Virus record (IMG/VR): IMGVR_UViG_3300036798_000105
Span: 1-60,717 of that record
DNA from: a virus
Lineage: Duplodnaviria; Caudoviricetes
Reading direction: 5' to 3' (one strand)
DNA length: 60,717 nt
Part shown: in pieces, positions 26,714 to 51,931 of the stretch
Layout of the letters: each line of letters opens with the position of its first letter
Position numbering within the stretch: the first letter of the stretch is position 1
Notes under the pieces: model-generated
The model's database searches: none
Seen by the model: the letters and a program-made list of their open reading frames with translations, nothing else
Told to the model about the DNA's origin: nothing
Translations under genes and position numbers: made by a program

Positions 26714-26717
26714 TACA

Positions 26718-26810
26718 TCATCCGCCTATTCCTATCGTTGGGTGTATTATGTGAATGAGAACTATGCTGACGATTTCCCATCCAAGGAATAGCCATGACC
26801 ACCAAGACAT
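26718..26810 (-). CDS. 30-aa Trp-rich membrane microprotein
   Basis: MSWWSWLFLGWEIVSIVLIHIIH; starts 1 nt after the PHP stop. Confidence 0.6.
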   Translation of the reverse strand: MSWWSWLFLGWEIVSIVLIHIIHPTIGIGG

Positions 26811-26811
26811 C

Positions 26812-27756
26812 TTAACTCCAGGGTTTCCAGTCTGCGTCGGATATCGGGTATTCTAGCCGGGCGGCTTTTGGCAAAGTCACATTACACTGCTCGGCGATGT
26901 ACTCGGCGTTCAGGATCGCCTCCCAGGCGGCGTTACGCGATAGGCCAGTCTTCATGAGGCGCTCGCCTAGGGCCTTATCGGACTCCGGGAACGTCATTGG
27001 TACGTCGTAATTCCAGCTTCGCATCGCATCATCGATCGACTGGTTCTTGCGGTGTACCGCGTGGAGGATGGCCTGCATGTTCGAGTCTTCCGGGCGCGGG
27101 TAATGAACATCGCACGTCGCTACGAGCGGTACACCCGTTTCATTACTGAGTCGTTCATACGCAGGGTTGATTCGACATGTCTTATCAAGTTCGTAGAAGG
27201 GCTGGACTTCGAGAAAGTAATGGTCCCCAAATAGCCGGTGAAAACGGTCGATGACGCGTCGAGCGTCATCCCAGGCATAGCCGTCTCTTGTCGTGGGATT
27301 CGGGATGCCCTTGCCTCCAACAAGAGCGCACGCGAGCATGCTTCCAGTACACCCAGAAAGAGCGAACAGATTTCCTGAATTACTTTGGAGATTCCCTCCA
27401 GAAACTGTTGGATGGTAGTGGTGATCGCGCCAAGACTGGGTGATGAGCTGACAGAGGTTTCGGTATCCATTTGCGTTCTCCGCGAGGATTGTGAGGTGGT
27501 ACTTCCATTGACTGCGGGTTTCGTCGGTTGGCCCGGTATATGCTTCGAGTCCGAAGACCGGCTTAACGCCTGCCTTCAAGGCTGCCTTTTCGAACTGGAA
27601 GTGGCTTGATGAACCGCCGTGCTCAGTCAGCGCCTGCGCGGTATAGCCTAGTTCGGCTGCGCGCTCGACATGTTTTGCCGGTAGCTTGTGGCCATCGCCA
27701 TGACTGAAGGTTGAGTGGTGTAAGTGATGAAGGGATACGTAACGCATCTTCTTCAT
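26812..27756 (-). CDS. dnaE: DnaE N-terminal PHP-domain half
   Basis: H.HSTFS..DG, ALTEHG, GLEAY, LSGC, TCDVHY. Confidence 0.92.
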   Translation of the reverse strand: MKKMRYVSLHHLHHSTFSHGDGHKLPAKHVERAAELGYTAQALTEHGGSSSHFQFEKAALKAGVKPVFGLEAYTGPTDETRSQWKYHLTILAENANGYRNLCQLITQSWRDHHYHPTVSGGNLQSNSGNLFALSGCTGSMLACALVGGKGIPNPTTRDGYAWDDARRVIDRFHRLFGDHYFLEVQPFYELDKTCRINPAYERLSNETGVPLVATCDVHYPRPEDSNMQAILHAVHRKNQSIDDAMRSWNYDVPMTFPESDKALGERLMKTGLSRNAAWEAILNAEYIAEQCNVTLPKAARLEYPISDADWKPWS

Positions 27757-28003: not shown

Positions 28004-28363
28004 CTACTTTCCGCCTTCACATCCGCGTCGGAACGTCTTGGTTTCTGGATCCCACTGGTACCAGCACACGAACTCGTCGAGTGGCATAGCATCAATGCCT
28101 TCCTCGAATCCGGTTGGCTTATGACAGTGGACGCATTCGCCGCCGTCAATGACCTGATCGAGTAGGCGGAACAGGGCTATGGTTGGGTTGATGCCAGCGC
28201 CGATGTCCCATGTCTCTCCCCATTTAGCGATGGCCATCCACACTACCGGCGGCTCATCGTCGCTGTACCGGAAGCTGAATTCGCTAGCGCCGGTACGCCT
28301 GATCAGGTCAACGCCTGCCGGTACGCGTGGGTCTTTCTCTGGCAAGTCTCTTCTCGTAGGCAT
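28004..28363 (-). CDS. Hypothetical protein (CxHC)
   Basis: TAATG coupling with the upstream gene. Confidence 0.55.
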   Translation of the reverse strand: MPTRRDLPEKDPRVPAGVDLIRRTGASEFSFRYSDDEPPVVWMAIAKWGETWDIGAGINPTIALFRLLDQVIDGGECVHCHKPTGFEEGIDAMPLDEFVCWYQWDPETKTFRRGCEGGK

Positions 28364-28710
28364 TAACCTGGCTCCCCTAGCTCGCCCCATTTGGTACCTG
28401 AGTTAGCTTGCCGGTAGTAGAACCCGGCGAAGTTGATGATGTCGATTGCGGAGTCCCCGTCGAAATCATTGTTCCGCCATGAGTGATACTTGATGCGCCC
28501 GGCCTTGTTGAGGATGTCGTGGACGAGTCCCTTCCATCCTTTTGTTCTCCACGTCTCGCCGGTAGGATCGTACCCGCGCTCGCACATCGTACGTAGCGCT
28601 ATAGCGAACGGGCCGGATAGCTGATCGATGGCGTCAGGGGTAGGTTCCAGGCCCAGCTTCCGCATGAAGTCGTAGGCGGCATCGTGCATACCGTCATCAC
28701 TGAAGCTCAT
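28363..28710 (-). CDS. All-alpha MazG/dUTPase-fold-like protein (nucleotide-modification-associated candidate)
   Basis: GW.G...DI..K..RI and DSAIDIINFA patterns; sits beside ThyX. Confidence 0.5.
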   Translation of the reverse strand: MSFSDDGMHDAAYDFMRKLGLEPTPDAIDQLSGPFAIALRTMCERGYDPTGETWRTKGWKGLVHDILNKAGRIKYHSWRNNDFDGDSAIDIINFAGFYYRQANSGTKWGELGEPG

Positions 28711-28957
28711 CGTTCCTCTTTCTGTGCTGTATCCGCGCGTGGTTCTTGAGTATCTGTTCCAGGGTCCATATTCCCTGTAGTTCTATTGTCTTCGGGAGGT
28801 TACATTCGCGGCACCGAATGAGAACGGTCGTAATTTCGACCTGTCTGAGTTGTGGATGGTACACTACGTTTTTCGGGAGCCATACGTCTAGGATGTCCCA
28901 GATATGAACATGTTCAGGGACTTTCGGCGCGGCTTCTATTTGCGGCTCGGTCATCAC
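28697..28957 (-). CDS. Hypothetical protein (HxH, CxxC)
   Basis: Coupled ORF. Confidence 0.5.
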   Translation of the reverse strand: MMTEPQIEAAPKVPEHVHIWDILDVWLPKNVVYHPQLRQVEITTVLIRCRECNLPKTIELQGIWTLEQILKNHARIQHRKRNDELQ

Positions 28958-29925
28958 ATCATCGGCTTCCGCGCAGCGTTATGATGCAACGGTTCGACAG
29001 GATCGATGTCGGTCCATGTGTCCGGGGCATCGCCCGCCGCCGAGTGAGCGTTAACCCGGTCGCGAATTACGCACCAGCGATCGGCCGGGCCGTTAAAGCC
29101 GCAGTGCCCGGTCTGGTAGCACACAGGCTTGAACAAGCGGGCGATCTCGCGTTGCTGCCAGCTTTCCTCCGGCGGGCCGTAAGTCATGATTGCCCTGATG
29201 AACTGGTCCCACACATGCTTCCACTCAGCCTGAGCTTGCGAGCACAGTCGCATGCCTGCCTGGTTGACCAGGTTCCGCAGGTCGGTGTGGTAGTGGATGC
29301 GCGTCGTGATGTCTGTCGGCAGGAGTCCGCGCGCCTCCTCGGCGGGCATGCCGGAGCCGATGAGGTGGAGGTATGCCTGCGCGGTATGTGAGACGCATTC
29401 GTCCCAGACGTTCCGCTGCCACTCCTGGGTAGAGTCTTCCGCGCCGGGAGTCTGCCCACCTTCTGTGTTCGCCAAGGATGGTGGGATCGGCACCTCGAAT
29501 GCTGCGTTCTCCTTGACGGCGAACCGCATCGACTCCTGAACGAACACGGCCGTACGCTGTCGTACGAGCTGATGCGTGAATGCCCGCGTCACGCCACTGA
29601 TGAAGAAGTGGAGGTTGATGAACTCAAGCGGAGCACTGATCTTACTTGACTTGAATCCATCCAGCCACTTCAGGGCCTGATCGTGCGAGATGTACCTCGG
29701 GTCGTCGTAGATACCTCCCTGGTATAGTTCGCTCGCCGCAGCCATTACCCGGAGCGGGTTAGCCGTCATCGAGACCAAGGTGACCTTGGGACGTACCGGC
29801 TCGCCGCCGTATGTGATCGGCCTAGCCGCGTACATGGCCTCATCCGCCCACTTGACCGGTAGGCTTCGGTTCTCTGGCGGCATGTAGTCCTGCTCCTTCT
29901 CTTCGTGACTTGTCCACTCGCTCAT
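28954..29925 (-). CDS. thyX: ThyX-like FAD-dependent thymidylate synthase (variant motif RQRx7S)
   Basis: PLEF, GVTRAFTHQLVRQR...QESMR, EEARGLLP, RLCSQAQ.EW. Confidence 0.85.
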   Translation of the reverse strand: MSEWTSHEEKEQDYMPPENRSLPVKWADEAMYAARPITYGGEPVRPKVTLVSMTANPLRVMAAASELYQGGIYDDPRYISHDQALKWLDGFKSSKISAPLEFINLHFFISGVTRAFTHQLVRQRTAVFVQESMRFAVKENAAFEVPIPPSLANTEGGQTPGAEDSTQEWQRNVWDECVSHTAQAYLHLIGSGMPAEEARGLLPTDITTRIHYHTDLRNLVNQAGMRLCSQAQAEWKHVWDQFIRAIMTYGPPEESWQQREIARLFKPVCYQTGHCGFNGPADRWCVIRDRVNAHSAAGDAPDTWTDIDPVEPLHHNAARKPMM

Positions 29926-30023
29926 TTTCTTGCCTTCCTGATGAAGTGTGCGATCGCACTAAGTGCGAGCCGAACCAGTATGAGTACGGCTATTACATTT
30001 GCCGCAAAATAAACTAGCTCCAT
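29922..30023 (-). CDS. 33-aa membrane microprotein
   Basis: MELVYFAANVIAVLILVRLALSAIAHFIRKARK; TAATG and ATGA coupling on both sides. Confidence 0.55.
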   Translation of the reverse strand: MELVYFAANVIAVLILVRLALSAIAHFIRKARK

Positions 30024-30709
30024 TACCTGCCGCCGTTGATCTCGATGATAGCGCCGGTCATCTGCTCCGGGCCGGTAAGGACCCATGCGATAGTCTTGGC
30101 CACTTCCTTGCGTGTGGCTCTTCTGCCGGTAGGGATGTTCTGTTCTTCATACGAGCGGGCGTGTTCTGGAGTCCAGCCCCGGAATCCGGGGATGGTCTTG
30201 TCGATGTACTCCGTCATCGGGGTATCCTCGACCATGCCCGGCGCTACCGCGTTGATCCGGTGGAGCGGCGCCAGCTCCCGCGCCATCACCTTTACGGCCA
30301 TGTCGAGCGCGGCTTTTGAAGCGCAGTAGGCGACGGAACCGCGCATCGGGATACGGGCGGCGTCGGAGCTGACCGCGACGGCGGACATTGCGTTGTCCGG
30401 GAATATCCGCAGGTGTTCCGAGATGGTGAGGACGAACCCGGCGCAGTTAATGTTGAAAAGGTAGCCCATGGTCACGTCGATGTTCTGTTCGTGTATCCAG
30501 GCGAGCTCATTATAGCCAGCCGAGTAGACGATGTATGGGAATGGGCCGTGAGTGCTGATGTATGTGGAGACGCTAGCTGCGAGCTCAACGTCTAGCTCGT
30601 TCCTATGCGGAGTGTGTATGTCGCGTCCTAGCTTCTCGGACATGACCTTTGCAGTAGTCTTCCCGATGCCGGAGTTGCCGCCGATGATGAGACACTTGTT
30701 AGTTATCAT
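30023..30709 (-). CDS. Short-chain dehydrogenase/reductase (FabG-like)
   Basis: GGNSGIG, YCASK, INAVAPG. Confidence 0.9.
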   Translation of the reverse strand: MITNKCLIIGGNSGIGKTTAKVMSEKLGRDIHTPHRNELDVELAASVSTYISTHGPFPYIVYSAGYNELAWIHEQNIDVTMGYLFNINCAGFVLTISEHLRIFPDNAMSAVAVSSDAARIPMRGSVAYCASKAALDMAVKVMARELAPLHRINAVAPGMVEDTPMTEYIDKTIPGFRGWTPEHARSYEEQNIPTGRRATRKEVAKTIAWVLTGPEQMTGAIIEINGGR

Positions 30710-30963
30710 TCCATCCGCATATTCACTCGTACTGGTGGCGCTTCGGCCATCTCTGACATTTCTTCCTTGGCATGTGAAATGATGAATGCTTGCGGCATCA
30801 TCTCCTTGATCATGTTAGAACAGTTCAAGCATATCTCTATTGCCTTGTAGTCATCCTCCCCGACGAACTGGCCGTCATTGGTGTGATGTATGACGTCTAT
30901 GCGCAGCAGGACTGTAGTGTTGATGCATTGTTCTTCGCAGCAGTCGCAGAATGTCTTCTTCAT
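30706..30963 (-). CDS. Small Cys-rich protein
   Basis: CDCC...CLNC; SD AAGGAG. Confidence 0.6.
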   Translation of the reverse strand: MKKTFCDCCEEQCINTTVLLRIDVIHHTNDGQFVGEDDYKAIEICLNCSNMIKEMMPQAFIISHAKEEMSEMAEAPPVRVNMRME

Positions 30964-30992
30964 ACCGGCTCCTTACGGTTACGGCTATCTCT

Positions 30993-31021
30993 AGTATACC
31001 GTCGCGCGCGGGTAATTACTA
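30993..31021 (-). promoter_or_regulatory. Predicted promoter TAGTAA-N17-TATACT
   Basis: In a CA/TG-free island, about 30963-31038. Confidence 0.6.
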
Positions 31022-31687
31022 GCCCGTCTTTTCCTTCCAGGCGGCTACATGGAACCGCAGGAATTCCCTGAATGCGTTCAGGCTATGAACACGAATCAGG
31101 CCATCCCTGTTGACGCCCACGGAATTGTACGGCTGTGCCATGAGGTAGGTATTCTGAATGCCTGCTTCGCGTGCTTCGTGAAGTTGCTCTGTCAGGTCAT
31201 CTATGGCGGCTATGATCCGGCCGAGTCCTACTTGCTGTACCAGTTCGTGGTACTTGCCATGACCGTCAGGATCATCCCACAGGATCGCATCGAAACCAAT
31301 GTGGTTCCGGTTGAGCCATTCTTGCGTGTCTTCATCGATGTTGTCGAGACGGTTGTACGGACGAGTGGTACAGATCCAGATCTCTACATCCTGGTTCCTG
31401 AGCCATGTAGTCAAGTCGCTCGCGCCGGGGTATACCGGCATCGTCCGCTTCATGCCGCCTTGTCGGTAAGCTAGCTTGATCTTGCGATAGATGGAGTGAT
31501 CGATGCCCATGAATTCCGACAGCCGCCGTCCGGGATTGATCGAGCTTGGATTCGGCATCTTGCGACCTAGCCATCCCTCGGCAAATTTAAGGAAGTGCAC
31601 GTGATAGTCGCCCAATGTTCCGTCGATGTCGAGAGCCACAACACCGCGCAGAGCGCCGTTCCTGAAGATCTGTGGATTAGTCATCAT
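31019..31687 (-). CDS. HAD-family phosphatase (5'-nucleotidase-like)
   Basis: DIDGT, TTRP, IDD motifs. Confidence 0.85.
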   Translation of the reverse strand: MMTNPQIFRNGALRGVVALDIDGTLGDYHVHFLKFAEGWLGRKMPNPSSINPGRRLSEFMGIDHSIYRKIKLAYRQGGMKRTMPVYPGASDLTTWLRNQDVEIWICTTRPYNRLDNIDEDTQEWLNRNHIGFDAILWDDPDGHGKYHELVQQVGLGRIIAAIDDLTEQLHEAREAGIQNTYLMAQPYNSVGVNRDGLIRVHSLNAFREFLRFHVAAWKEKTG

Positions 31688-32450
31688 TCAGAATCCTCAT
31701 CACGTCCGGGTACGTCTTGTGAACTAGGTAGCTCTTGAGCCATTTGCCGTACCGACCGATCCGGTAGATGTGAGCGTGACAATTACAGTTAGTGGTAAGC
31801 GGCTTGATGACCCTGGCCGTCGTCTCGCCGTTTGGTTGTGGAAGTGACCACTCGGTAGTCCGGTACCCGAATACGCAGGCATTACGGTACCATGCGTGCG
31901 CTTCCGTGCCGTCGCATATAATTGTGTCTTCGGCTTCAAGACCCTGGTTCGTGCTACCTACGGCATAGATTGTGTGGTATACGAACTCGTGCTCCTTGCG
32001 GTAACATAGTGCTCGCGCGGGTATGGTCGAGATGATCTTCTCCGGGCCGAACCGGTATATGTCCGAGACTGCTCCGCTGGTGATTGCCGGAATCTTGACG
32101 AACCGGACTTTCTTGATTTCATGAAGGCGCTTCCACATGGCCGTATATGTCGCGCGGATATCCCATGCGTCATGTTCCCCCACGAAATCCTCTGGCGATA
32201 CCTTCCCGTTCCAATTGCTTCCGTAAACCTTGAGCCGGTACTGTTCCGGTGTGCCGACTAGCCAGTATCCAACTCGCGTGTGATCTACCCATTCGTAGCC
32301 GGGAACTGGAGCATGAAGGTACTGGCAGCCGTATATTTGGCTTGGGGAATTTGAGCTGCTCATTATTACTACATAGTGGCCGAGACTGACGGCAGCTTCC
32401 GCCGCCGCCAGTCCGGTAGGGCCACAGCCAAGGATGGCTATAGTGCCCAC
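31677..32450 (-). CDS. FAD/NAD-dependent oxidoreductase
   Basis: GCGPTGLAAA, G.QYLH, ISTIP, IGRYGKW. Confidence 0.8.
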   Translation of the reverse strand: MGTIAILGCGPTGLAAAEAAVSLGHYVVIMSSSNSPSQIYGCQYLHAPVPGYEWVDHTRVGYWLVGTPEQYRLKVYGSNWNGKVSPEDFVGEHDAWDIRATYTAMWKRLHEIKKVRFVKIPAITSGAVSDIYRFGPEKIISTIPARALCYRKEHEFVYHTIYAVGSTNQGLEAEDTIICDGTEAHAWYRNACVFGYRTTEWSLPQPNGETTARVIKPLTTNCNCHAHIYRIGRYGKWLKSYLVHKTYPDVMRILNDD

Positions 32451-32824
32451 TAAAGAATCCTGCCTCCGTGTTGGTACGGTCGGGTGTGGCCGTACTTAAT
32501 GACTCGTTCAAGTTCATAGATGATATCGATGCCCCAGATATCAGCCATGTCTAGGATTCGGATAAGCACGTCGGCTAGCTCCGGGCCTACCCCGACCGGC
32601 TTGTTGTCTATGGTGTCTGACCATAGCTTGTCCCGGTAGGCGTCTAGGGCTTCCGACAGTTCCGACTGAGCCAGAGCGATGTACGCCGCGAACCATGGGC
32701 CGGTACGTGGAGGTAGTGTGTCGCCGCCGAACTTCTCGCGCCATCCCTTTTCCACATTCAGGTTGCGGATGACCAGGGTGAGGTACGGGATGTTATTGAG
32801 CGGCCCCTGCTCCAGGTCGCCCAT
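32450..32824 (-). CDS. MazG-like nucleotide pyrophosphohydrolase
   Basis: SELSEALDA...ELADVLIRILD. Confidence 0.85.
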   Translation of the reverse strand: MGDLEQGPLNNIPYLTLVIRNLNVEKGWREKFGGDTLPPRTGPWFAAYIALAQSELSEALDAYRDKLWSDTIDNKPVGVGPELADVLIRILDMADIWGIDIIYELERVIKYGHTRPYQHGGRIL

Positions 32825-33633
32825 CAGAACGGCGGGTCATCACTGGAGCCGCGAGCGCGACCGCGCCCACGGGCCGGGGCGGCAGACTTCGTGGTGGCGG
32901 CCGTTCGCGCGCCTCGGGTGCCACGGGCCGGAGCGGGCTTCTCCGGCTCTTTCGAGGCGGAACGGGTAGCCGTACGCGCGCCGCGCGCCGGAGTCTTCTC
33001 CGTAGCCGTACGGGCCGCGCGAGCGGGTTGCCTTCCGCGCGTCCTAGCCGGTTCCGGCTCCGGTTCTGGTTCTTCCTCCTCATCTTCCGGCTCATCCTCC
33101 TCAACGTCATCCACTGGCTCATCCTCGTCATCATCGAATGGGAGCCATTCCTTGATGGCAGGCTTCCACTCGCCGTTGTAGCGCTCTCGGTCGGTGACGA
33201 CTCGGGACCATGCCTCATCGTTCTCCTGGCCGGGGCGGAAGCTGCCGACCTTGACGATAGGCGCGCCGTTCTGATCGTCCTTGTCCTCGACTTCGGTGTT
33301 GTTCTTCACCTGCCTCAGCGTGAAGCCGTAGTTCTCCATGAACGGTGCCCACCTGAACTTGGCGCCGCCGATCAGGGCGTAGTTCAGCCAGAACGGGCAG
33401 CCGTTGAACTCTTCGTAGTCGTCGGTGTTCTCGTCAGCGACCCAAAGGATCTTGAGCATCGGGTCGTTGTTCTGCGTGCGGGTCCACCACATCTTCTTGA
33501 CGTAGCCGGACAGCTCGATGTCCTTGGGAGGGACTTCCCCATCGTAGCTGTCGAACGTTTCGGTGGAGTACTCAAGGGCATCCAGTTCATCGATGTCCAG
33601 GTCGGCGGTGTCTTCCTTGCGGAGCTTAACCAT
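32824..33633 (-). CDS. Single-stranded DNA-binding protein (putative)
   Basis: YDG..PP N-terminus, acidic then basic linker, C-terminal DDPPF. Confidence 0.7.
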   Translation of the reverse strand: MVKLRKEDTADLDIDELDALEYSTETFDSYDGEVPPKDIELSGYVKKMWWTRTQNNDPMLKILWVADENTDDYEEFNGCPFWLNYALIGGAKFRWAPFMENYGFTLRQVKNNTEVEDKDDQNGAPIVKVGSFRPGQENDEAWSRVVTDRERYNGEWKPAIKEWLPFDDDEDEPVDDVEEDEPEDEEEEPEPEPEPARTRGRQPARAARTATEKTPARGARTATRSASKEPEKPAPARGTRGARTAATTKSAAPARGRGRARGSSDDPPF

Positions 33634-33823
33634 TGCGGTTTCCTTCGTGAGTGTGATCTAGGTAGTGTTGGTGTAGGCGGTGGTCGGCGGTGTGTTCCCC
33701 TTTCGTCACGAACCGTAGCAGGGAATGGCGTTTCCCTACGTGCTTATGGAGCCACTCATCCGACTGAGTGTCTTGATCGACCAGTACGTCGGGCGGGACG
33801 TACCGGCGTCGTATTCGGGCCAT
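33626..33823 (-). CDS. Small His-rich protein
   Basis: Overlap-coupled; similar to 23912-24136. Confidence 0.55.
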   Translation of the reverse strand: MARIRRRYVPPDVLVDQDTQSDEWLHKHVGKRHSLLRFVTKGEHTADHRLHQHYLDHTHEGNRNG

Positions 33824-34679
33824 GTCCTGTCGCCTTATCGATCGCTTGTATCATCTCGGACATTGCGAAGTAGTTGCCCTCTTCGACATCCCAGAACTTG
33901 CCTAGTGCCATGTAGCGGTCCTTGGCGTACCACGGAGGGTAGGGCTGGGCCAGAGCACGGCGGACTACCGCGCCGCGCATTTCTCGGCTCTCGCGCGCGA
34001 CCGCGTAGTATAGCGCTACGGAGAACTGTGCCGAGACATAGTCAGAGATCTCGCCTTTCTTGCCCAAGAGGTGAGGGATGACTCGCTGTTCCCCTTCGGC
34101 ATCGTCAACGGACATTGATGTCGTGATGAAGATGACGTTGAACAGGCCGTCGATAAGACGGTCACACCATCTCTTGAAGCCGTTCTGGTACTTCTGGTGA
34201 TTCTGGATGGCCGGGATGTCTAGGTCGCGTTGCGGATTGATTTCGTTCTCACGCTGAAGAATCCAGCGCATGTACAGCTCCTGCATCTTCGTGCCGGAGT
34301 CGATCACGAACCAGTCGTCGACAGTGAGATTCTGCTCTGCCCACCTCACACCGGCTACCGCATGCTCCCATGTCGGCGCACGGATTAGCTCTGCCTGGCT
34401 ACCTACTGCTCGCGCGGATGCGACACCCTCCGTTTCGGTCGACAGGAACCAGACACCGCGCGAGCCGTCGGCGGCACCGCCAGCGAGCAGCGTCTTGCCG
34501 TGGCCGGACGGTCCATGGATGAGGATGTTCTTTGTTGCGCTGACGCCGGATTCAGCTAGGTTCTCGACCTTGATCTCGATATCGGCTTCCATCATCGAGA
34601 GCGGTGCTTCGCGGGATTGCTTGGCTGACTGGCGGGCAATTCCCCTGGCACCGCGCAGGCCTCGGGTAGGTGGCATCAC
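33756..34679 (-). CDS. AAA-family ATPase (Sak4-like recombinase)
   Basis: GPSGHGKT, FVIDS, YAKDR; sits between exonuclease and SSB. Confidence 0.8.
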   Translation of the reverse strand: MMPPTRGLRGARGIARQSAKQSREAPLSMMEADIEIKVENLAESGVSATKNILIHGPSGHGKTLLAGGAADGSRGVWFLSTETEGVASARAVGSQAELIRAPTWEHAVAGVRWAEQNLTVDDWFVIDSGTKMQELYMRWILQRENEINPQRDLDIPAIQNHQKYQNGFKRWCDRLIDGLFNVIFITTSMSVDDAEGEQRVIPHLLGKKGEISDYVSAQFSVALYYAVARESREMRGAVVRRALAQPYPPWYAKDRYMALGKFWDVEEGNYFAMSEMIQAIDKATGHGPNTTPVRPARRTGRSRHSVG

Positions 34680-35080
34680 AATGCTCGCATCGCCGCTATG
34701 AACGTCTCCCAGTCGGGGAAGACGGTGATAGCCGACAAGCAGTGGAAGACGTTCTCCCGCTTGCCGATCAGGAAGATCTCCTTGTTCGTGGTGAGTGCCA
34801 TGCCGAGTTCTGTGTGGTGACCGCCGCGTCCTAGTCCGCTTGTGAACATGATGAAGGTGTCGGCCTTCATGACATCCTCGGTATCAAGGACGGCGTGTGG
34901 CATACCGCGCCATGGGGTAGCGTTGAGGTCGTCTGCGCCAAGGCCCTCTTCCTGATTGTTACCGTCGAGCCAGCGAGATGTCGTCGTGATTCCCATGGCC
35001 TGGAGTTCATCCCGGTACTTGCGCATTTCTTCCTTGCGCTCGTATTGGGCGGCGATGTATACCCAGCCTGTTGCGTACAT
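34676..35080 (-). CDS. Nucleoside 2-deoxyribosyltransferase / nucleotide N-hydrolase-like protein
   Basis: VYIAA, SRW, D..DV..AD, G.HTELG.A, ENVFH. Confidence 0.7.
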   Translation of the reverse strand: MYATGWVYIAAQYERKEEMRKYRDELQAMGITTTSRWLDGNNQEEGLGADDLNATPWRGMPHAVLDTEDVMKADTFIMFTSGLGRGGHHTELGMALTTNKEIFLIGKRENVFHCLSAITVFPDWETFIAAMRAL

Positions 35081-36060
35081 TATGCTGCCTTTCGCATATC
35101 GGCGTACGGATCTGCTCTCCGGTAATTGTTCCGTAGAACTGACTTGTATGAGTCGCTACCGCGTTCGTGAAGCGTACATGGAATCCAGAACGGACAGCGC
35201 GGGCAGTCCCTTGTGGATGTTTTGGTTATCGGAATGATTCCCTCGCGGACGGCATTCATTACTGCCACTTCATCGGCTATGCGCTCCAGCTGTGTCCTCT
35301 GCTCTTTTGCCGAACGTTCAATGACCGTACGGACGAATAGCGGCGGTGGTTGCTTCTTGGAGATGCTACCGTCCTTATTTGTGCGCAGGCCGTCTAGGTT
35401 TTGTGGACGGTCATCCAGCTTAGCCTTGCGAAGGAAATTGTAGATAATGCCTTCGATTGACTCATTTTGCTTCAGGATGCCTTGCGTCTTGAGGAGTTGT
35501 GATGCGACCGCCCAGTAGCTACCAGCCTGATCGTCAAGTTCAAGATAGGCGGTAGCGATCTGAGCGGCAGTCTTGTTCTCCAATAGGTATACCTTGCCGT
35601 CTTCGGCATTGCGGAGTACGCCGTCCCAGCGTGACGCGAAGTAAGCAAGTGGTTGTCCGTCACGCATGATGCGCACGCGGAAAGGCTGCTCGACTGAGAT
35701 TATGTCCCATTGCGTATCGCGGCCGTAGTAGTTGGCGTACTCCTCAAGCATGGCTATGCCTAGCTCGGTAGCATCCATCCACACCGGCTCATCGAATGTC
35801 TCGTCAAGGTATGTCCGGGCGAACGCGATTTCATCGCCAGCCCACTTCTCCCAGGTATCGGCAGGATGCGGGCCACGGCGCTTGCCATTGAGGTACCATT
35901 GCGCTAGTGCTTCGTGAATTCCGATTCCGAACCACAAAGCATCCGCTTGCGGAGACCGCTGCCGGTAACCTTGGCGATACTCCCACCACCAGCGTTGCGG
36001 ACAGCGCTTGAATGCACTACGCTCTGAAGTGCGTAGTGTTGGAAGTGTCGCCGCTGTCAT
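35080..36060 (-). CDS. Cas4-like / PD-(D/E)XK exonuclease
   Basis: FKRCPQRW, D...ENKT, Q...YW, CPRCPF...C. Confidence 0.85.
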   Translation of the reverse strand: MTAATLPTLRTSERSAFKRCPQRWWWEYRQGYRQRSPQADALWFGIGIHEALAQWYLNGKRRGPHPADTWEKWAGDEIAFARTYLDETFDEPVWMDATELGIAMLEEYANYYGRDTQWDIISVEQPFRVRIMRDGQPLAYFASRWDGVLRNAEDGKVYLLENKTAAQIATAYLELDDQAGSYWAVASQLLKTQGILKQNESIEGIIYNFLRKAKLDDRPQNLDGLRTNKDGSISKKQPPPLFVRTVIERSAKEQRTQLERIADEVAVMNAVREGIIPITKTSTRDCPRCPFWIPCTLHERGSDSYKSVLRNNYRRADPYADMRKAA

Positions 36061-36207
36061 ATAGATTGCCCCTTCAAATCTTCAGGGTCCTAGACGGTAA
36101 CGGGCCGGGGCGGGCTGGTCGTTGCCGTCTAGGACGCTCAGGATTCCCTACGGACCAAGCCCGGCTATGCGGCGGGCGGGCACCCTTGACATAACCGGGC
36201 TTGGCGT

Positions 36208-36645
36208 CTAGTAGGGGGCTTCCGCTGCCGCCTTGGAGGCGTTGGACGGACGCCCGCGACCACGCTTGACGGGCGCGGCGGCCGGAGCCGGGGTTGCCGG
36301 AGCGGTAGCGGCGGCCTTGCGGGGACGACCACGGGCAGGCCTGGCCGGCTCGGGCTCAGGCTCTGGTTCCGGCGCGGCGCGCTCGGACTTGCGGGCTTCG
36401 CGCTGAGAGATGTTGAATTCGGACTTCTGGAAGTGCGGGTACAGGGCCGAGCCGAGCGACAGGAGCTTGTCCACGGGGACATCCTCCAGGGCCGCGACGT
36501 TGTCTTCGAACCAGACAACGTAGTCGGACATCGTCGGGGACAGATCCTTGTCGAGGTACCGCTGGAAGTCGACCTGGCCATTCTCTTCGGGGTCAGGCTC
36601 TGGCGGCGCGACTACGGCCGCCCTGCGCCCTCGTGCTGCTGGCAT
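36208..36645 (-). CDS. 145-aa protein of the M..[FY]..W.E...FQ.S..N family (in-frame extension to 36939 possible)
   Basis: SD AGGAGG before ATG 36645; core aligns with 48769-49224 and 52038-52412. Confidence 0.75.
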   Translation of the reverse strand: MPAARGRRAAVVAPPEPDPEENGQVDFQRYLDKDLSPTMSDYVVWFEDNVAALEDVPVDKLLSLGSALYPHFQKSEFNISQREARKSERAAPEPEPEPEPARPARGRPRKAAATAPATPAPAAAPVKRGRGRPSNASKAAAEAPY

Positions 36646-36690
36646 AGGGGAATCCCTCCTGGGGTGAGGCATTTTCGCGTTACCCTTCCG

Positions 36691-36719
36691 AGTATACTCC
36701 GGCCCGGAGCGGATGGCTA
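36691..36719 (-). promoter_or_regulatory. Predicted promoter TAGCCA-N17-TATACT
   Basis: Same architecture as the other phage promoters. Confidence 0.65.
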
Positions 36720-37097
36720 CCCCCTTTCGCGATGAACTTTCGGTATGATCCGAAAGCTCGAAACGGCCGGGCGCGATGTAACGGAGGGTAATGAAGCCAT
36801 CCGAATTCGGAACCTTCCATTCCTTTGATGGTTTCCTGACATCGTCGGCCGTATACTTCATGACGAACCGCGCCATGTCGATAGTAAAGCCGTAGCCGGA
36901 AACGAGCGCTTCCATGATGACGGCAATATTCCGGGCCACGGGATTTCCTTATTTGCCTAGAAAGTTATTCACGATGGGCGGATATATTACCGCCAGAAGC
37001 AGGAACATCAGGCATAGCATGATGATGGTCATTGTCATGCCCATAGCGATGTTCCCGACGATGCGCATCCTCTTGTAGTTGGGCTCCACTGTATCTC

Positions 37098-37415
37098 CTA
37101 GTGCGGGTAGTATGGGCGTTCTTCTCCGAACCAGATCTGCTCGTCCGCTTCGTGACATAGGTACAGATGAATAAGATTGCGTACCTGCTGGCGCGGTTCG
37201 TCATATGTGTTGATGTCTACGGAGACGTTGAGAGGCTTCAGGTTGTCATCCTCATCATTGTCATTATCGGCACACCACACTTCCAGGCATAGCCTACGGC
37301 TCGCGCGGTCTACTGATACCTCACCGCGGTTGTCGCCCCTCTTGACGCCGTAGGACCACTGGAATATTTCCAGCTCGTGTTCGATTTCGGTCATGATCCG
37401 GTCGATGCTACTCAT
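37098..37415 (-). CDS. Hypothetical protein (HEADE motif)
   Basis: Coupled ORF. Confidence 0.55.
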   Translation of the reverse strand: MSSIDRIMTEIEHELEIFQWSYGVKRGDNRGEVSVDRASRRLCLEVWCADNDNDEDDNLKPLNVSVDINTYDEPRQQVRNLIHLYLCHEADEQIWFGEERPYYPH

Positions 37416-37593
37416 GGAGCTTCCAGTTGCTTTCCTTCGGCCTGCGTACTATTGAGTCGGCGTAGCGCTCGCATTCATCATACTCTTCGCCGGTTAGGGG
37501 ATCTGGCCATGCTTTCCCGAACTCACGGACCTTGTCGGCAAATGCCTCGTACCACTTGTTGTCTAGGTCGAATTCCGTCGGTTCGGTCGGCAT
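37408..37593 (-). CDS. Hypothetical protein
   Basis: TAATG coupling to the helicase. Confidence 0.55.
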   Translation of the reverse strand: MPTEPTEFDLDNKWYEAFADKVREFGKAWPDPLTGEEYDECERYADSIVRRPKESNWKLHE

Positions 37594-39539
37594 TATGCGT
37601 CCTTCCCTGCGATAGCCATCTCGCTGAGGCGACGGGGGCTAGCTGTCGATACCGCTGCGCGCTGCTCTTCGTTCAGGAGCGCGATCCATTCGTCGATGCT
37701 GTCTACCGATACGAGCCGGTAGATGGTGACCTGGTGCATGCGGCTCACCCGGTGAATACGGGAGAACAACTGCTCATCCCGGTCGGAGATCCATGGCATG
37801 TCGAGGACAACCATCTCATCGGCCGCGTCCAGGGTGATCGACTCACCGCCCGCATCACGGTTCAGGACGACTACGCGCAAGTTGTCGTTCGTGTCCTGGA
37901 ACCGCGCGACGAGATCCACACGGTCCCTGTCGCTAGTCGCGCCGGTAAGTGTCAGAACCTCCAGGCCCGTCTCCTTGCGAATCTGTTCGGCCGCTAGCCC
38001 GACGATGCTGCTGAAGCTGCTCGCGACCACAATCTTGGCTTCGGTATCCTCGCGTTCCTGGATGAAGTCGATAAGCCAGTCGATCTTGTTCGACGGCATG
38101 CGCGGGATTAGGTGTTGCCTGGTGTCACCTAGGACGTGGGCGGCTGTTGCGAATTGTCGGAGTCTGGTGATTTCAGCAAGGACTCCCGTCGCAGTGATCC
38201 GTGCGCCATCCTGGAGAGTTGCTTCGGCAAGCTTCTCCATATCCCAGTACGCTCGGGACTGGACTTGCTCCATGTCAAGCTGAACGTAACACTGACTGTT
38301 CGGGTCTTCTGGGTCGATGGGAGTTCCTGCGTAGTTGATTGGCGGGAGATCTGGTGCCGCATCTTTCTTCTCTCTCTTGATGTAGTGTGGGCGAAGCATC
38401 CGGTCCCATGTGTCCGGGTCGCGCGGTTCTAGGACCTTGCCGCCGTTCCCGACAATCTTGCCGTACCGGCCATCCTCGACACCGAAGTGCTGTTCAGCCC
38501 AGCTCCAGTAGCTGCTGAACTTCTTATCATCTAGCCAGTTGAGAGTTCCCCATCCTTTCTCAAGCTTGCTACGGAACGGAGTGCCTGACAAGGCTATGGC
38601 TAGCCCGCCGGGCCTGAGTCGCTTGCGTATCTTCATCGCGCCGAACCGGGCCTGTGTAATACGCTTGCTCTGGATGTTAGCGGTGCTGGCTAGCAGGTTG
38701 TGGCTCTCATCGAAGATGATCGCATCCCACGTTCGCTCCGTGAGGAACGGCCATTCAGGAGTCGCGTGGTACTCATGCTTGGGATGTCCGTACGGCGGAC
38801 GACTGTCCTCAAAGGCACATATGCCGCCCGGCCCGGACGGGCAGAATTCGCGGCGCTTCGCGCGGACCATCTCGATGTTTATGATCAACATCTTGCGAGT
38901 GCCGGGGATCTCTACGGAGTGATCTGCGAAGTCGGCCATAGCCTGCTCGCGTTCGGCTCGGCCACCCTGCGCAACGAACGTGGCGATTCCTGGCGCCCAG
39001 CGCATCGTCTCGCGCTCCCACACGGTACGTACCGCCGTACGCCGGCAAGCGACAAGGATCTCCTTGGCGTCATTCTCGATAACAGCGGCGAGTGCCTGAA
39101 GCGTCTTGCCAAGGCCGGGATCATCGCCAAGGATGACATTCTGACCGGCGAGGATGAAGGCGGTTCCCGCGATCTGGTATGAGCGATTACGCATCGCCCT
39201 CATCAGGTCCGGCGCTTCCGCCTCAACACGCGGGAAGCTGACCTTGTTGATCTTCTCCTCGCGGATATCCTCCAGCTGGTTTTCCTTGGCAACAGCCGCG
39301 CGAGCCCAGTCTGCGAGTGCCGGCAGGATCTCTAGATCTGAGCCGAATTCCTTGCGTAGTGCCCGACAGGTATCCATCGACAGCGGGTAGGACCATCCGA
39401 CGAATATGTTTGGCGTTACTGTCTTGTCCCAGTCCGCACGGGCACCTGGAACGTTCTTCGCTGCCCGAGGACCTTTGCCCCCGGCGTAATCAATCTTGGC
39501 AAGGACGCGCTTTCCGTCCGTCGTTACAACGGCCTTCAT
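37593..39539 (-). CDS. SNF2-type superfamily 2 helicase
   Basis: DDPGLGKT, DESH, LSGTP, GESITL, Q...RIHR. Confidence 0.92.
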   Translation of the reverse strand: MKAVVTTDGKRVLAKIDYAGGKGPRAAKNVPGARADWDKTVTPNIFVGWSYPLSMDTCRALRKEFGSDLEILPALADWARAAVAKENQLEDIREEKINKVSFPRVEAEAPDLMRAMRNRSYQIAGTAFILAGQNVILGDDPGLGKTLQALAAVIENDAKEILVACRRTAVRTVWERETMRWAPGIATFVAQGGRAEREQAMADFADHSVEIPGTRKMLIINIEMVRAKRREFCPSGPGGICAFEDSRPPYGHPKHEYHATPEWPFLTERTWDAIIFDESHNLLASTANIQSKRITQARFGAMKIRKRLRPGGLAIALSGTPFRSKLEKGWGTLNWLDDKKFSSYWSWAEQHFGVEDGRYGKIVGNGGKVLEPRDPDTWDRMLRPHYIKREKKDAAPDLPPINYAGTPIDPEDPNSQCYVQLDMEQVQSRAYWDMEKLAEATLQDGARITATGVLAEITRLRQFATAAHVLGDTRQHLIPRMPSNKIDWLIDFIQEREDTEAKIVVASSFSSIVGLAAEQIRKETGLEVLTLTGATSDRDRVDLVARFQDTNDNLRVVVLNRDAGGESITLDAADEMVVLDMPWISDRDEQLFSRIHRVSRMHQVTIYRLVSVDSIDEWIALLNEEQRAAVSTASPRRLSEMAIAGKDA

Positions 39540-39571
39540 TAAGGCCCCTTTCTCGCTCTCCCGGTAGCCTT

Positions 39572-39600
39572 ATCCTACCCTACCGGCCGCCGGAAAGCGA
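39572..39600 (-). promoter_or_regulatory. Predicted promoter TCGCTT-N17-TAGGAT
   Basis: Near-duplicate of 47814-47842; CA/TG-free. Confidence 0.6.
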
Positions 39601-39607
39601 ATTCTGT

Positions 39608-39862
39608 TTAGATGCCTAGTTTATTGCGTGTTTCGTGACCAGCTGGCCCTATGTACTTGAGTTCGCCCATCTTCATCTGGTAAGCTGGGTCCAACCATAG
39701 CCGCTTACCTTGGCCAGGAATGTACACGCGCATCGACCAGTAGTTTCCACGTCCGCGCTCCAGTACAACAAAACGGATTGTATGCGGAGTCCAGTCGGGC
39801 GGAAGCTTCCGGGTGCTCTCCCACACTTCCCCGACTTTCGGAAGTCCCGTGCGGGTAGGCAT
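39608..39862 (-). CDS. Hypothetical protein
   Basis: TAATG-coupled ORF. Confidence 0.55.
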   Translation of the reverse strand: MPTRTGLPKVGEVWESTRKLPPDWTPHTIRFVVLERGRGNYWSMRVYIPGQGKRLWLDPAYQMKMGELKYIGPAGHETRNKLGI

Positions 39863-40089
39863 TAGTAGTCGCCAGCTTCATGGTAACCGTGACTAGGCTC
39901 TTCAGGTGGTGAATTCTTACTCTCCTGCTTGTAATGCGTGTTGACGTTGTAGTTGCCCTGTTCGACTAGTTCTCGCGCGGTATTGAGGATCTCCAGGATG
40001 CCTTCTTTGCCCTTGACGGGGCCTCGAACGTCAATTATCATCTTGCCTATGTCGGACACCGTCACCAGCATCAAGATGCTTCTAGCCAT
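39862..40089 (-). CDS. Hypothetical protein
   Basis: Coupled ORF with SD GGAG. Confidence 0.55.
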   Translation of the reverse strand: MARSILMLVTVSDIGKMIIDVRGPVKGKEGILEILNTARELVEQGNYNVNTHYKQESKNSPPEEPSHGYHEAGDY

Positions 40090-40918
40090 TATTGTCTCCA
40101 GGTATTTCTAGGGATCGGATGTCGCCGCCGTGTATGGCCGAGGCAACTTTCCAGTTGGGGATGTAGTCGTTCAGTAGTTTCCGCCATGATACCCGTAGCG
40201 GCTTGTCTGGAGCATTCGTGTAGCTCGGCCATCTCTTGTGGATGATGTCTAGGCATTCCTTCTCGGCAGCGGTTCGTGCCTCTATGGTGCTGTACTTCGC
40301 GGCGAATCCTCCCGGGCTGTACCGCTTAGCTACCGACACCGCCTTGACGTCGCAGTGAGCGAGCCATGGAATTCCACGCTTGATACCTTGCCTGGCTAGT
40401 TCGGTATCCTCCCCGATCGTGTGAAGCTTAGTGTCGAAGTTCCCACAGTCGAGCGCTGTCTGGACGTTAAGTCCGAACACCTGAAACCCCCAGCCGCCAG
40501 GACACAGGATGGCACCATGGTTTCTGGAGATGGCTCCGCCGGTGAACATGTCATGGATGGATCGTGTAGCGCCGATGCCAAGTACTCCTGGCTTCTCGGC
40601 TTCCTCAAGCAGGAGGCTCGCGTTTGAGTTGGAGTGAATGTGGATGTCGTCATCGCTCATGATGATCGAGATGAGTGCCGTTTTCTTGGCATGCTGAACA
40701 CAGAAGTTCCGGGCGTACCCGATGCCGCGCGCGGACAGAGGCAGCGGGAGGATGTAGACATTCTTGCCCCAATTCTCCTCACGCTTGAGCTTGCCGTGGA
40801 TGCTGAATTCCATGCGGTCAACCACGAGCCGTACCTGAATGCCCTGGTCGATCCAGTTGGGTACGGTCTTGCGGAGCATGTCGATGCGGCTCATGGTTGG
40901 GATGTAAACTACATCCAT
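40082..40918 (-). CDS. GT-A fold glycosyltransferase (resembles phage DNA-modifying TAGT/GREB1-like enzymes)
   Basis: VYIPT..R, GIGYARNF, SDDDI (DxD), GED.EL, PGG motifs. Confidence 0.75.
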   Translation of the reverse strand: MDVVYIPTMSRIDMLRKTVPNWIDQGIQVRLVVDRMEFSIHGKLKREENWGKNVYILPLPLSARGIGYARNFCVQHAKKTALISIIMSDDDIHIHSNSNASLLLEEAEKPGVLGIGATRSIHDMFTGGAISRNHGAILCPGGWGFQVFGLNVQTALDCGNFDTKLHTIGEDTELARQGIKRGIPWLAHCDVKAVSVAKRYSPGGFAAKYSTIEARTAAEKECLDIIHKRWPSYTNAPDKPLRVSWRKLLNDYIPNWKVASAIHGGDIRSLEIPGDNNG

Positions 40919-41511
40919 TATTGTCCTCTATTCCTACGGCACTCAGGACCCGCACTAAGCGAACGGCTGAGCTCGTCAGTCAGGTGACGGTTACAGTGTC
41001 GGCAGTTCCCGATTTCCTGGCCGTACCTGAAGCCGGTCACTTCGACACCTTCGGCCAGGATCGCTTCCAGGACCGTGATCTTCATGAGCCTGCTGACGTT
41101 CAGGTCCGGCTTCCCGCCGACGATGCGCTTGACGAACGTACGCCCGGCGTATGCGCCCTGCTCCGGGCGATCTACCCGCCAGAAGTCGAAGTCATTGTTG
41201 CCGGTGAAGCTCTTGGTGGCGTAGTGCCCGCGTGGTATCGTGGAGTAGTCAGCGTCCTGGAACTTGGGGGCTTCCATCTTTGCTCGTTCCTCAATAGGGC
41301 ACTGTCCGTCGAGGTGGGAGACAACCCACTTGCCGTCACGGTTCTTGTCGACACGACCCGCCATCGACGGGACTAGGACGCCGCATCTCACGCACGCGTT
41401 CTCGTATTTGTTCTGGCGGTGATTTGACAGGTTCGATTCCGTCACGCCATAGCAGGCCCGCACGTCCGCGACGGTTTCGTGCTCATGACCCTTACCACAC
41501 TTGATACTCAT
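40918..41511 (-). CDS. Multi-zinc-ribbon protein (C-terminal CxxC.R.LTD..S...GP.C)
   Basis: Cys motifs; coupled to the glycosyltransferase. Confidence 0.65.
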   Translation of the reverse strand: MSIKCGKGHEHETVADVRACYGVTESNLSNHRQNKYENACVRCGVLVPSMAGRVDKNRDGKWVVSHLDGQCPIEERAKMEAPKFQDADYSTIPRGHYATKSFTGNNDFDFWRVDRPEQGAYAGRTFVKRIVGGKPDLNVSRLMKITVLEAILAEGVEVTGFRYGQEIGNCRHCNRHLTDELSRSLSAGPECRRNRGQ

Positions 41512-41555
41512 CGTATCTCATCTCTTCTCCGGCCGGTTCCTTACCGGCTAACCCG

Positions 41556-41584
41556 AGTATACCCTACGGAAGGCTTTCCGTCGA
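41556..41584 (-). promoter_or_regulatory. Predicted promoter TCGACG-N17-TATACT
   Basis: In a CA/TG-free island. Confidence 0.6.
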
Positions 41585-51902: not shown

Positions 51903-51931
51903 TTTCTTTTTCGCGATCCGGCGGGTACGCT
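51903..51931 (+). promoter_or_regulatory. Predicted promoter TTTCTT-N17-TACGCT for the CA/TG-free gene
   Basis: GGG-TAnnnT architecture shared with the other islands. Confidence 0.5.

Follow-up and report, generated by a model that had tools for sequence, protein, structure and literature searches.

A conserved nucleotide-metabolism island with a TAGT-family glycosyltransferase in an uncultured siphovirus: a possible route to glycosylated DNA

The IMG/VR virus record IMGVR_UViG_3300036798_000105 (Duplodnaviria; Caudoviricetes), whose entire 60,717 bases form the window analysed here, carries beside its own DnaE polymerase a set of nucleotide-metabolism genes that includes a divergent homologue of the flavin-dependent thymidylate synthase ThyX, a small flavoprotein, a HAD phosphatase and a DNA-type glycosyltransferase. 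The region is a conserved nucleotide-metabolism island within the replication module of a DnaE-encoding siphovirus that belongs to a large actinophage-like group. The reading we favour, at a probability of about 40%, is that the phage makes an altered pyrimidine before replication, cleans the nucleotide pool, incorporates the product and then glycosylates it in DNA. The divergent ThyX would act at C5 of a pyrimidine deoxynucleoside monophosphate (dNMP) ahead of replication, perhaps assisted or replaced by the co-inherited flavoprotein. Competing or unwanted nucleotides would be cleared by the NT5C-like HAD phosphatase, a MazG-like pyrophosphatase and an N-glycosidase resembling MilB and the nucleoside deoxyribosyltransferases (NDTs). 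The product would be incorporated by the phage DnaE, and the TAGT-family GT-A glycosyltransferase would put a sugar on that base in DNA, in the window phage and in part of its relatives.

The argument is comparative. We observe family assignments, conserved catalytic motifs, co-inheritance and a glycosyltransferase gene that recurs next to that of ThyX or the flavoprotein; we infer the chemical steps, the identity of the base and the DNA modification itself. The gene observation is sound, and its interpretation as DNA modification is plausible but unproven. A more specific proposal, which we advance with some doubt, is a flavin-dependent route in which ThyX or the 257-aa flavoprotein makes a hydroxymethyl- or hydroxy-pyrimidine without ThyA, TET or JBP enzymes and the TAGT enzyme glycosylates it; a sugar-free form might then occur in more than 100 cultured actinophages of Mycobacterium, Gordonia, Microbacterium and Streptomyces. 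What is new here is the putative link, drawn by genome comparison, of a DNA-type glycosyltransferase, a ThyX-type enzyme and a virus-only flavoprotein.

The record is rated 94% complete, has no end repeats and has a G+C content of about 57%. The sole public sequencing run containing its DNA is a soil metagenome available as contigs, which is probably its source, and the phage is uncultured. Structural genes occupy the plus strand to about 23.7 kb, and replication, recombination and nucleotide genes occupy the minus strand from 24.1 to about 51.6 kb. An original prediction, made from the sequence alone, had proposed a DNA hypermodification pathway of eight functions in this second block. All the open reading frames (ORFs) that it named are present with the boundaries it assigned, co-oriented on the minus strand, and seven of its eight functions hold up: ThyX, a short-chain dehydrogenase/reductase (SDR), the HAD phosphatase, the FAD protein, one MazG-like protein, the N-glycosidase and the glycosyltransferase. 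The eighth, a second "MazG" in a 115-aa ORF, does not. DnaE adjoins the set as had been claimed, but its gene is divided between two ORFs, one for the PHP domain and one for the polymerase core. A Sak4-like ATPase, a PD-(D/E)XK (Cas4-like) exonuclease and an SNF2 helicase also lie inside the 12.5-kb interval, which therefore reads as a replication module rather than a dedicated operon.

Conservation of the island

Eighty IMG/VR loci, many of them cut by contig ends, were fetched around homologues of the flavoprotein and searched with tblastn at E ≤1e-5. Sak4 was found in 78 of them, the HAD phosphatase and the exonuclease in 74 each, ThyX in 54 and the SDR in 34, followed by the glycosyltransferase (25), MazG (22) and the NDT-like gene (15). 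A subset of 28 loci had complete 10-kb flanks, and in all 28 the HAD phosphatase, both parts of DnaE, Sak4 and the exonuclease are present beside the flavoprotein; ThyX occurs in 23 of these full-flank loci and the SDR in 22; MazG (12), the glycosyltransferase (10), a methyltransferase (6) and the NDT-like gene (3) are rarer. Flavoprotein, HAD phosphatase and replicase thus make up the fixed core, which ThyX nearly always accompanies, and the other genes are accessories. The MazG, NDT-like, SDR and methyltransferase genes shuffle inside the same block between lineages.

The core is also found in cultured phages. A tblastn search with the flavoprotein yields 126 phage records, every one from an actinobacterial host, and these carry the flavoprotein core in Mycobacterium cluster D, Gordonia, Microbacterium and Streptomyces phages. 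In Mycobacterium phage Gumball the stretch from gp60 to gp68 encodes an Asp-rich protein, an oxidoreductase, a nucleotidase, a methyltransferase, a FabG-like reductase, DnaE and a ThyX-like protein, and the island recurs in nearly the same gene order in Gordonia phage MoiGyank, Streptomyces phage ShakeNBake and Microbacterium phage Potty, in the last of which the flavoprotein gene overlaps the start of ThyX. At the DNA level, megablast of the region against phage records gave no match.

A glycosyltransferase that rejoins the island

The 278-aa product of the ORF at 40082-40918, which the original prediction had called a glycosyltransferase, belongs to the Pfam family TAGT (PF20691; 38.1 bits against a cut-off of 27.5, E 2e-9) and matches phrog_842. 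According to PMC13216743 and PMC13390438, this family includes the T2/T6 DNA glucosyltransferase that adds a second glucose to glucosyl-hydroxymethylcytosine. The structural model (pLDDT 93.5) finds its best folds in BFVD among TAGT-domain phage proteins, with TM scores of 0.64-0.65 over the full length (about 290 columns), and one BFVD match is a beta-glucosyl-HMC-alpha-glucosyltransferase; against the PDB it finds generic GT-A enzymes only. Across 33 sequences D90 of the DDD run never varies and D91 is kept in at least 90%, with E170 and D171 conserved as well. No homologue was found in 50,697 phage records at E 1e-5, and 91 metagenomic proteins match.

In the window the gene sits among replication and nucleotide genes. 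To what extent does it keep this company elsewhere? Among 48 loci fetched around glycosyltransferase homologues, 38 have at least one of ThyX, the flavoprotein and the HAD phosphatase within the fetched stretch, and 8 of the remaining 10 carry other island genes and stop before the site where these three would be expected. The glycosyltransferase stands alone in L112 and L113, and the contig of L112 has the flavoprotein near its other end (seen in locus L011). Its position within the island varies. The clade of the window has it flanked by DUF6011 and the SNF2 helicase, L121 and L124 have it between SNF2 and the exonuclease, and L119, L123 and L125 have it between DnaE and ThyX, 87-302 bp from the latter; L116 has the same order of DnaE, glycosyltransferase and ThyX, with ThyX 1652 bp away. 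It lies just past ThyX in L126-L129 (362-404 bp), just ahead of ThyX and the methyltransferase in L131 (54 bp), and between the flavoprotein (33 bp) and the HAD phosphatase (76 bp) in L130. ThyX is thus at most 404 bp away in eight loci (L119, L123, L125-L129 and L131). That the gene keeps returning to the island in differing orders is the strongest argument that its product may work with the island. The idea that the glycosyltransferase and the methyltransferase are alternatives to one another was rejected, as six loci (L006, L007, L009, L016, L031 and L034) have both.

Candidate sources of an acceptor base

The usual partners of PF20691, a TET/JBP enzyme or a hydroxymethylpyrimidine synthase, are missing from the genome. 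Profile hidden Markov model searches of the genome confirm the earlier impression that it encodes neither a TET/JBP dioxygenase nor a C5-methyltransferase, Thymidylat_synt (PF00303, ThyA-type) and DNA_methylase have no match in this 94%-complete genome, and no dCMP deaminase was found in it. If the glycosyltransferase acts on DNA, the acceptor base would then have to come from ThyX, the flavoprotein or an unrecognised gene, because the known sources are absent.

The ThyX-like protein (323 aa, 28954-29925, minus strand) bears out the "ThyX variant" of the original prediction, with a match to Pfam Thy1 at E 1.6e-29 (103.5 bits against a cut-off of 24.8) and an RQR motif. The canonical RHRxxS...SxR signature is altered: the window has RQRTAV....SMR where Thermotoga maritima ThyX has RHR..S....SGR, so that Gln, kept in at least 90% of a clade of 32 sequences, takes the place of His, and Val that of the first Ser. 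The His of the T. maritima PFEH motif is Phe in the window. The C-terminal part of the protein has three cysteines that never vary among the 32 clade sequences (C269, C275 and C285) and a fourth, C228, that at least 90% of them share; these cysteines, which may form a metal site, are absent from the ThyX of Thermus phage TMA and partly absent from that of Potty. The protein matches 491 phage records, most of them of Pbunavirus type. A kinship with the M6 system was considered and rejected, since the 296 Pseudomonas matches are PB1-like Pbunaviruses and not M6/YuA-type phages, and the M6 synthase gp58 is unrelated.

The small viral flavoprotein (257 aa, 31677-32450, minus strand; phrog_8720, 3.7e-71) has the N-terminal GxGxxG dinucleotide-binding motif expected of the predicted FAD oxidoreductase, and its model (pLDDT 93.8) matches flavoenzyme folds best. 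It falls in the fold group of UDP-galactopyranose mutases, amine oxidases and PHBH-type monooxygenases. The mutases come first (Z 15.1, 253 of 257 residues aligned, 17% identity), with PHBH-type monooxygenases and D-amino-acid oxidases slightly lower (Z about 13.5). Sequence profiles match characterised enzymes solely at the N-terminal GxGxxG segment. The protein lacks the mutase-specific domain, being 257 aa long against the 363-510 aa of the matched chains, and a Pfam scan gave no match to the GLF family. Its nearest clusters among Atlas language-model neighbours are 95-98% viral, and it is therefore not a borrowed host housekeeping enzyme; cellular amine-oxidase-type families score lower (0.92). 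The family comprises 966 clusters in a library of 50%-identity representatives. No fused form occurs among the best 150 of these 966 representatives, all of which are 175-333 aa long, and a search of longer proteins found none among 1232 candidates, which is weak evidence. A complex prediction with two copies of ThyX and the flavoprotein gave a score of 0.00 and a mark of 0.32, and is evidence neither way.

The flavoprotein ORF overlaps by 11 bases that of the HAD phosphatase (222 aa, 31019-31687, minus strand). Here too the original assignment stands: catalytic motifs I-IV are kept, with D20, D22, T24, T107, K145 and D164 invariant in 22 sequences. The likeness to 5'(3')-deoxyribonucleotidases is weak. 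Both Pfam Hydrolase and NT5C are sub-threshold (NT5C 18.1 bits against a cut-off of 24.8), and the only PDB match of the family profile is the 5'(3')-deoxyribonucleotidase cdN, at E 0.067. Its PHROG matches are phrog_420 and phrog_415, and a polynucleotide-kinase family is also matched.

Accessory nucleotide enzymes

The SDR (228 aa, 30023-30709, minus strand) is, as predicted, a classical short-chain dehydrogenase (adh_short E 6e-21; phrog_3142, 4e-34), with 198 SDR matches in the PDB. The two proteins that had been put forward as MazG-type fared differently. The 124-aa ORF at 32450-32824 (minus strand; phrog_3301, 8.6e-19) encodes a MazG-like nucleotide pyrophosphatase: against Pfam MazG-like families the single sequence reaches E 0.14 at best, the family profile matches the pyrophosphatase 4qgp at E 4.6e-6 and MazZ (7ody) at 7e-4, and the acidic metal ligands E55, E58, E82 and D85 are invariant. 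The 115-aa ORF at 28363-28710 (minus strand), found in 30 of the 80 loci, has by contrast an hhalign probability of 0.2 against the MazG family, with no PDB match under E 0.1 and no Pfam match. DUF1599 ("nucleotide modification associated domain 1") is matched by 1 of 22 members of its family (E 2.6e-5), a DUF1599 model finds no match in the genome at E ≤10, and an Atlas feature score of 0.90 against DUF1599 clusters is a lead at most; the protein may at best be DUF1599/Nmad1-like.

The nucleotide N-hydrolase-like function is borne out for the 134-aa ORF at 34676-35080 (minus strand), whose 15-sequence profile matches the CMP/hydroxymethyl-CMP hydrolase MilB at E 1.2e-4. The profile also matches BcmB (2e-4) and NDTs (about 1e-3), over about 50 residues; the single sequence alone reaches just E of about 0.5. 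Catalytic-type residues D69 and E91 are invariant in the 15 sequences.

CA/TG-free stretches and restriction sites

The window contains 21 stretches of at least 50 bp in which neither CA nor TG occurs, against a mean of 3.7 and a maximum of 9 in 50 first-order Markov simulations. The longest spans 689 bp (about 51595-52281), where the simulated maximum is 84 and the longest stretch free of the control pair AC/GT is 93 bp; it is enriched in CG, TA, AA and TT and depleted of AC and GT. Most of these stretches fall between ORFs, for example at 23715-23887, 43484-43621, 39539-39604, 41521-41589 and 30963-31037, and in the absence of CA and TG on either strand they contain no ATG, GTG or TTG start codon on either strand. 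One, at 32924-33028, lies inside the Asp-rich ORF 32824-33633, where it encodes a low-complexity acidic and Arg/Pro/Ala-rich tail.

The original prediction suggested that decoration of a modified pyrimidine in TG or CA context would explain these stretches, and asked whether the gene set predicts them in related phages. In a partial comparison of 9-21-kb pieces across phages, their occurrence does not follow that of the glycosyltransferase. Such stretches make up 25-75 bases per kb in close relatives of the window, while the distant glycosyltransferase loci L116-L129 are at baseline (0-8 per kb), and the pieces of Gumball, Potty and ShakeNBake, which have no glycosyltransferase, contain CA/TG-free stretches of 159, 127 and 130 bp, respectively.

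Several palindromes are also avoided in the window. TGCA is under-represented about six-fold (30 observed against 186.5 expected, z -11.5), TCCGGA and CTCGAG are absent (29.2 and 12.8 expected), and CCGCGG occurs 7 times against 43.4 expected. The avoidance of TGCA, CTCGAG and CCGCGG is common to close relatives.

Does the island modify DNA?

Several observations weigh against the proposed order of synthesis, incorporation and glycosylation. Five of the 28 full-flank loci have no ThyX within 10 kb, which makes DnaE a steadier companion of the flavoprotein-HAD pair than ThyX is. The window ThyX passes the NCBIfam thyX equivalog TIGR02170, if marginally (89.8 bits against a cut-off of 87.9), and its nucleotide-binding arginines and serine (R122, R124, S132, R134, R199 and R226) are invariant in 32 of 32 clade sequences; it appears divergent, not broken. 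A similar R-x-R variant, R-T-R, is seen in the ThyX of Pseudomonas phage LBL3, the sole Pbunavirus ThyX aligned, and we know of no DNA modification in Pseudomonas Pbunaviruses. The PF20691 match of the glycosyltransferase is confined to residues 4-93 (profile positions 3-90 of 205), and part of the adjacency of its gene to the island is expected by chance because the loci all come from one compact genome region. No thymidylate kinase that could phosphorylate a new dNMP was found in the genome. Site avoidance speaks, weakly, against a blanket protection of the DNA; it does not discriminate between the readings, because a 34-kb piece of the thymidine-hypermodified phage M6 shows avoidance of the same kind.

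The cultured phages add to these points. The core island is found without a detectable glycosyltransferase in 126 cultured records and so is not one obligate pathway: of the single modification pathway that had been proposed, the conserved and co-inherited nucleotide island beside its own polymerase remains, but not the obligate unit. Literature searches, whose scope left out most subscription journals and supplements, returned no report of modified DNA in cultured island-bearing phages, none of modified nucleosides in cluster D mycobacteriophages, and none tying ThyX-like enzymes to phage hydroxymethylation.

Could the island simply supply thymidine monophosphate (dTMP)? Nearly as likely as DNA modification is that it combines ordinary dTMP synthesis with pool hygiene in a phage whose DNA is canonical, the glycosyltransferase being an independent add-on with a different target or acting on a base made by an unrecognised gene, and the flavoprotein and SDR being redox helpers or unrelated accessories. 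A ThyX above its equivalog cut-off with its substrate-binding residues kept fits this well, as do the dCMP deaminase of relatives such as ShakeNBake, the island without glycosyltransferase in the 126 cultured records, the patchiness of the accessories in the 28 full-flank loci (from the SDR in 22 through MazG, the glycosyltransferase and the methyltransferase to the NDT-like gene in 3) and the strong avoidance of restriction sites. However, dTMP supply leaves unexplained why independent gene orders repeatedly bring a DNA-type glycosyltransferase next to ThyX or the flavoprotein, and why a virus-restricted flavoprotein of 966 clusters is always paired with a dNMP-phosphatase-like HAD protein; with clusters that are 95-98% viral, the flavoprotein does not look like host housekeeping.

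A decidedly less probable alternative moves the key step from ThyX to the flavoprotein, which would make the acceptor base as an oxidase or hydroxylase of a pyrimidine nucleotide or of DNA, standing in for TET/JBP or for the ThyA-type synthases of 5-hydroxy or 5-hydroxymethyl pyrimidines, while ThyX just supplies dTMP; the new hydroxyl would be tailored by the glycosyltransferase or, in other lineages, by the methyltransferase. Its fold group of flavin oxidases, monooxygenases and mutases agrees with such a role, as do the insertion of the glycosyltransferase between flavoprotein and HAD genes in L130 and the overlap of the flavoprotein gene with the ThyX start in Potty. There are also precedents: gp47 of PaMx11 is an FAD-dependent oxidoreductase that serves as a tailoring enzyme on modified thymidine in DNA (PMC8989533), and 5-hydroxy-dC is a known sugar acceptor in RB69-type phages (PMC13390438; bioRxiv 10.1101/2025.06.16.659550). 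Against this, similarity to characterised enzymes is limited to the dinucleotide-binding motif, tblastn finds no Pseudomonas phage, so that the protein is not a close relative of PaMx11 gp47, and the flavoprotein is present in all relatives, with or without a glycosyltransferase or methyltransferase.

Least likely, and by some way, is that a mutase-like flavoprotein, the SDR and the HAD phosphatase make an unusual sugar donor, for the glycosyltransferase or for another glycosylation, independently of ThyX chemistry. The flavoprotein fold does match UDP-galactopyranose mutases best (Z 15.1), and sugar-nucleotide pathways often include SDRs and HAD phosphatases, but the flavoprotein is without the extra mutase domain, PHBH-type monooxygenases lie within about 1.5 Z units, most flavoprotein-bearing phages are without the glycosyltransferase, and neither a nucleotidyltransferase nor a sugar kinase was seen among the ORFs scanned.

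Neighbouring genes

The first part of the split DnaE, a 314-aa PHP-domain ORF at 26812-27756 (minus strand; Pfam PHP 1.7e-30), aligns with residues 32-330 of Gumball gp66, and the second, the 782-aa polymerase core at 24151-26499 (minus strand; DNA_pol3_alpha 1.1e-57, with the finger domain), with residues 345-1095. About 450 bases between the aligned parts (26391-26845) are unmatched, and Rfam finds nothing in the gap. In L009 and L031 a methyltransferase gene is placed exactly in this split, and the DnaE of Potty is likewise in pieces.

Between DnaE and ThyX lie, besides the 115-aa ORF, a Cys-rich 128-aa protein (28004-28390, minus strand), without Pfam or PHROG match and with a homologue in 13 of the 80 loci, and an 86-aa protein (28697-28957, minus strand), without family match and found in 20. 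A Cys-rich 85-aa protein (30706-30963, minus strand; no family match, 17 of 80 loci) separates the SDR from the HAD phosphatase. In the closest relatives, L006 (11860-12300) and L007 (11802-12311), a Methyltransf_11-type methyltransferase stands between the 85-aa gene and the SDR; the window is without it at about 30709, where the two ORFs overlap instead.

Upstream of the MazG-like gene on the coding strand are an acidic Asp/Glu-rich protein of 269 aa (32824-33633, minus strand), with no family match at E ≤0.01 and found in 48 of the 80 loci, and the Sak4-like/AAA_24 recombination ATPase (33756-34679, minus strand; AAA_24 9.7e-13, phrog_124 2.9e-28). The acidic protein is the positional counterpart of the Asp-rich Gumball gp60, with which tblastn finds no match in the window. 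The exonuclease (35080-36060, minus strand; PDDEXK_1 6e-15, phrog_1218 3e-85) follows the N-glycosidase homologue, and farther along are the SNF2-family helicase (37593-39539, minus strand; SNF2-rel_dom and Helicase_C, phrog_62) and, directly upstream of the glycosyltransferase on the coding strand, a DUF6011 protein (40918-41511, minus strand; DUF6011 2.8e-8, phrog_636). A 243-aa protein at 36208-36939, without family match and kept in 31 of the 80 loci, has a Pro/Ala/Arg-rich C-terminal tail; the protein also gives weak AT-hook-like matches (E 0.16), and it may bind DNA as part of the replication module.

Outside the island, a minus-strand ORF at about 54705-55226 (matched over 54687-55205) is 34% identical to Gumball gp70 (E 2e-14); this gene lies two genes past ThyX in Gumball and 25 kb off in the window. 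Family scans of the remaining ORFs add just a primase-polymerase, a helicase-like ATPase and structural genes, and Rfam and tRNA scans of the window gave no match.

Significance

To our knowledge, the well-studied phage pyrimidine hypermodifications all begin with a ThyA-type hydroxymethylase or hydroxylase or with TET/JBP oxidation. Were the island to modify DNA, it would add a flavin-based entry point to such chemistry and explain what a very large flavoprotein family confined to viruses (966 clusters at 50% identity) does, and it would bear on restriction and CRISPR evasion by actinophages, on candidates for mycobacterial phage therapy and on new DNA-modifying enzymes. Many cultured and freely available phages with the core island can be grown on laboratory strains, M. 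smegmatis mc2 155 among them. Even ordinary dTMP supply, should the island prove to serve it, would assign a role to genes that in hundreds of genomes bear no annotation beyond "oxidoreductase / phosphatase / FabG-like".

Comparison with known systems

In gene content the window resembles cultured actinophages, namely the cluster D phages Gumball and PLot, Gordonia DV/DG, Microbacterium EF and ShakeNBake, which have the same genes in the same order at identities of 33-52%. Their module comprises an oxidoreductase, a nucleotidase/phosphatase, a FabG-like reductase, DnaE, and MazG-like and ThyX-like proteins (PMC11385102). Unlike the window, these phages have no detectable glycosyltransferase homologue, and many have a Methyltransf_11 methyltransferase that is absent in the window.

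With the cytosine modification of the T-even phages T2 and T6 the window shares the glycosyltransferase family PF20691 and, on the favoured reading, a logic of pool-cleaning enzymes, an own replicase and post-replicative sugar transfer. The T-even phages have a dCMP hydroxymethylase, a dCTPase, a dNMP kinase and an alpha-glucosyltransferase, whereas the window is without a ThyA-type hydroxymethylase, a thymidylate or dNMP kinase and GT-B alpha- or beta-glucosyltransferases, and its one-carbon enzyme is solely of the ThyX type. The base on which the T2/T6 TAGT enzyme acts, moreover, is glucosylated already, and the enzyme adds the second sugar. The systems in which a glycosyltransferase is associated with TET/JBP, from which PF20691 takes its name, likewise share that family, and the window differs from them in having neither Tet_JBP nor a C5 methyltransferase.

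The thymidine hypermodification of M6, ViI, PaMx11, SP10 and PhiW-14, which proceeds from 5-hmdU through 5-HMUDK to aGPT-Pplase or AADT and tailoring enzymes, resembles the proposal in being a phage-encoded pathway beside replication genes. Its M6 components (gp51, gp52, gp53, gp54 and the ThyA-type gp58) have no homologue in the window, all at tblastn E >0.4.

The RB69/DLP3-type phages come near in the order of events, with 5-hydroxycytosine arabinosylation (PMC13390438): a C5-oxygenated pyrimidine is made before replication and DNA is glycosylated afterwards, and flavin co-purifies with the synthase (bioRxiv 10.1101/2025.06.16.659550; PMC13390438). They differ in that the synthase is in the ThyA superfamily and in having other transferases and sugar genes.

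Bacillus phage SP-15, compared here by description rather than by sequence, is a myovirus of 222 kb that carries a teichoic-acid-like cluster of sugar genes and whose DNA contains a glycosylated hypermodified uracil, dihydroxypentyluracil. It has two Thy1/ThyX-family homologues, one of which its authors hypothesised to be a hydroxymethyl-dUMP synthase (PMC5977210). Hypothetical as that role is, SP-15 is the nearest published idea to a ThyX-type enzyme that would make the base for a sugar to be added in DNA.

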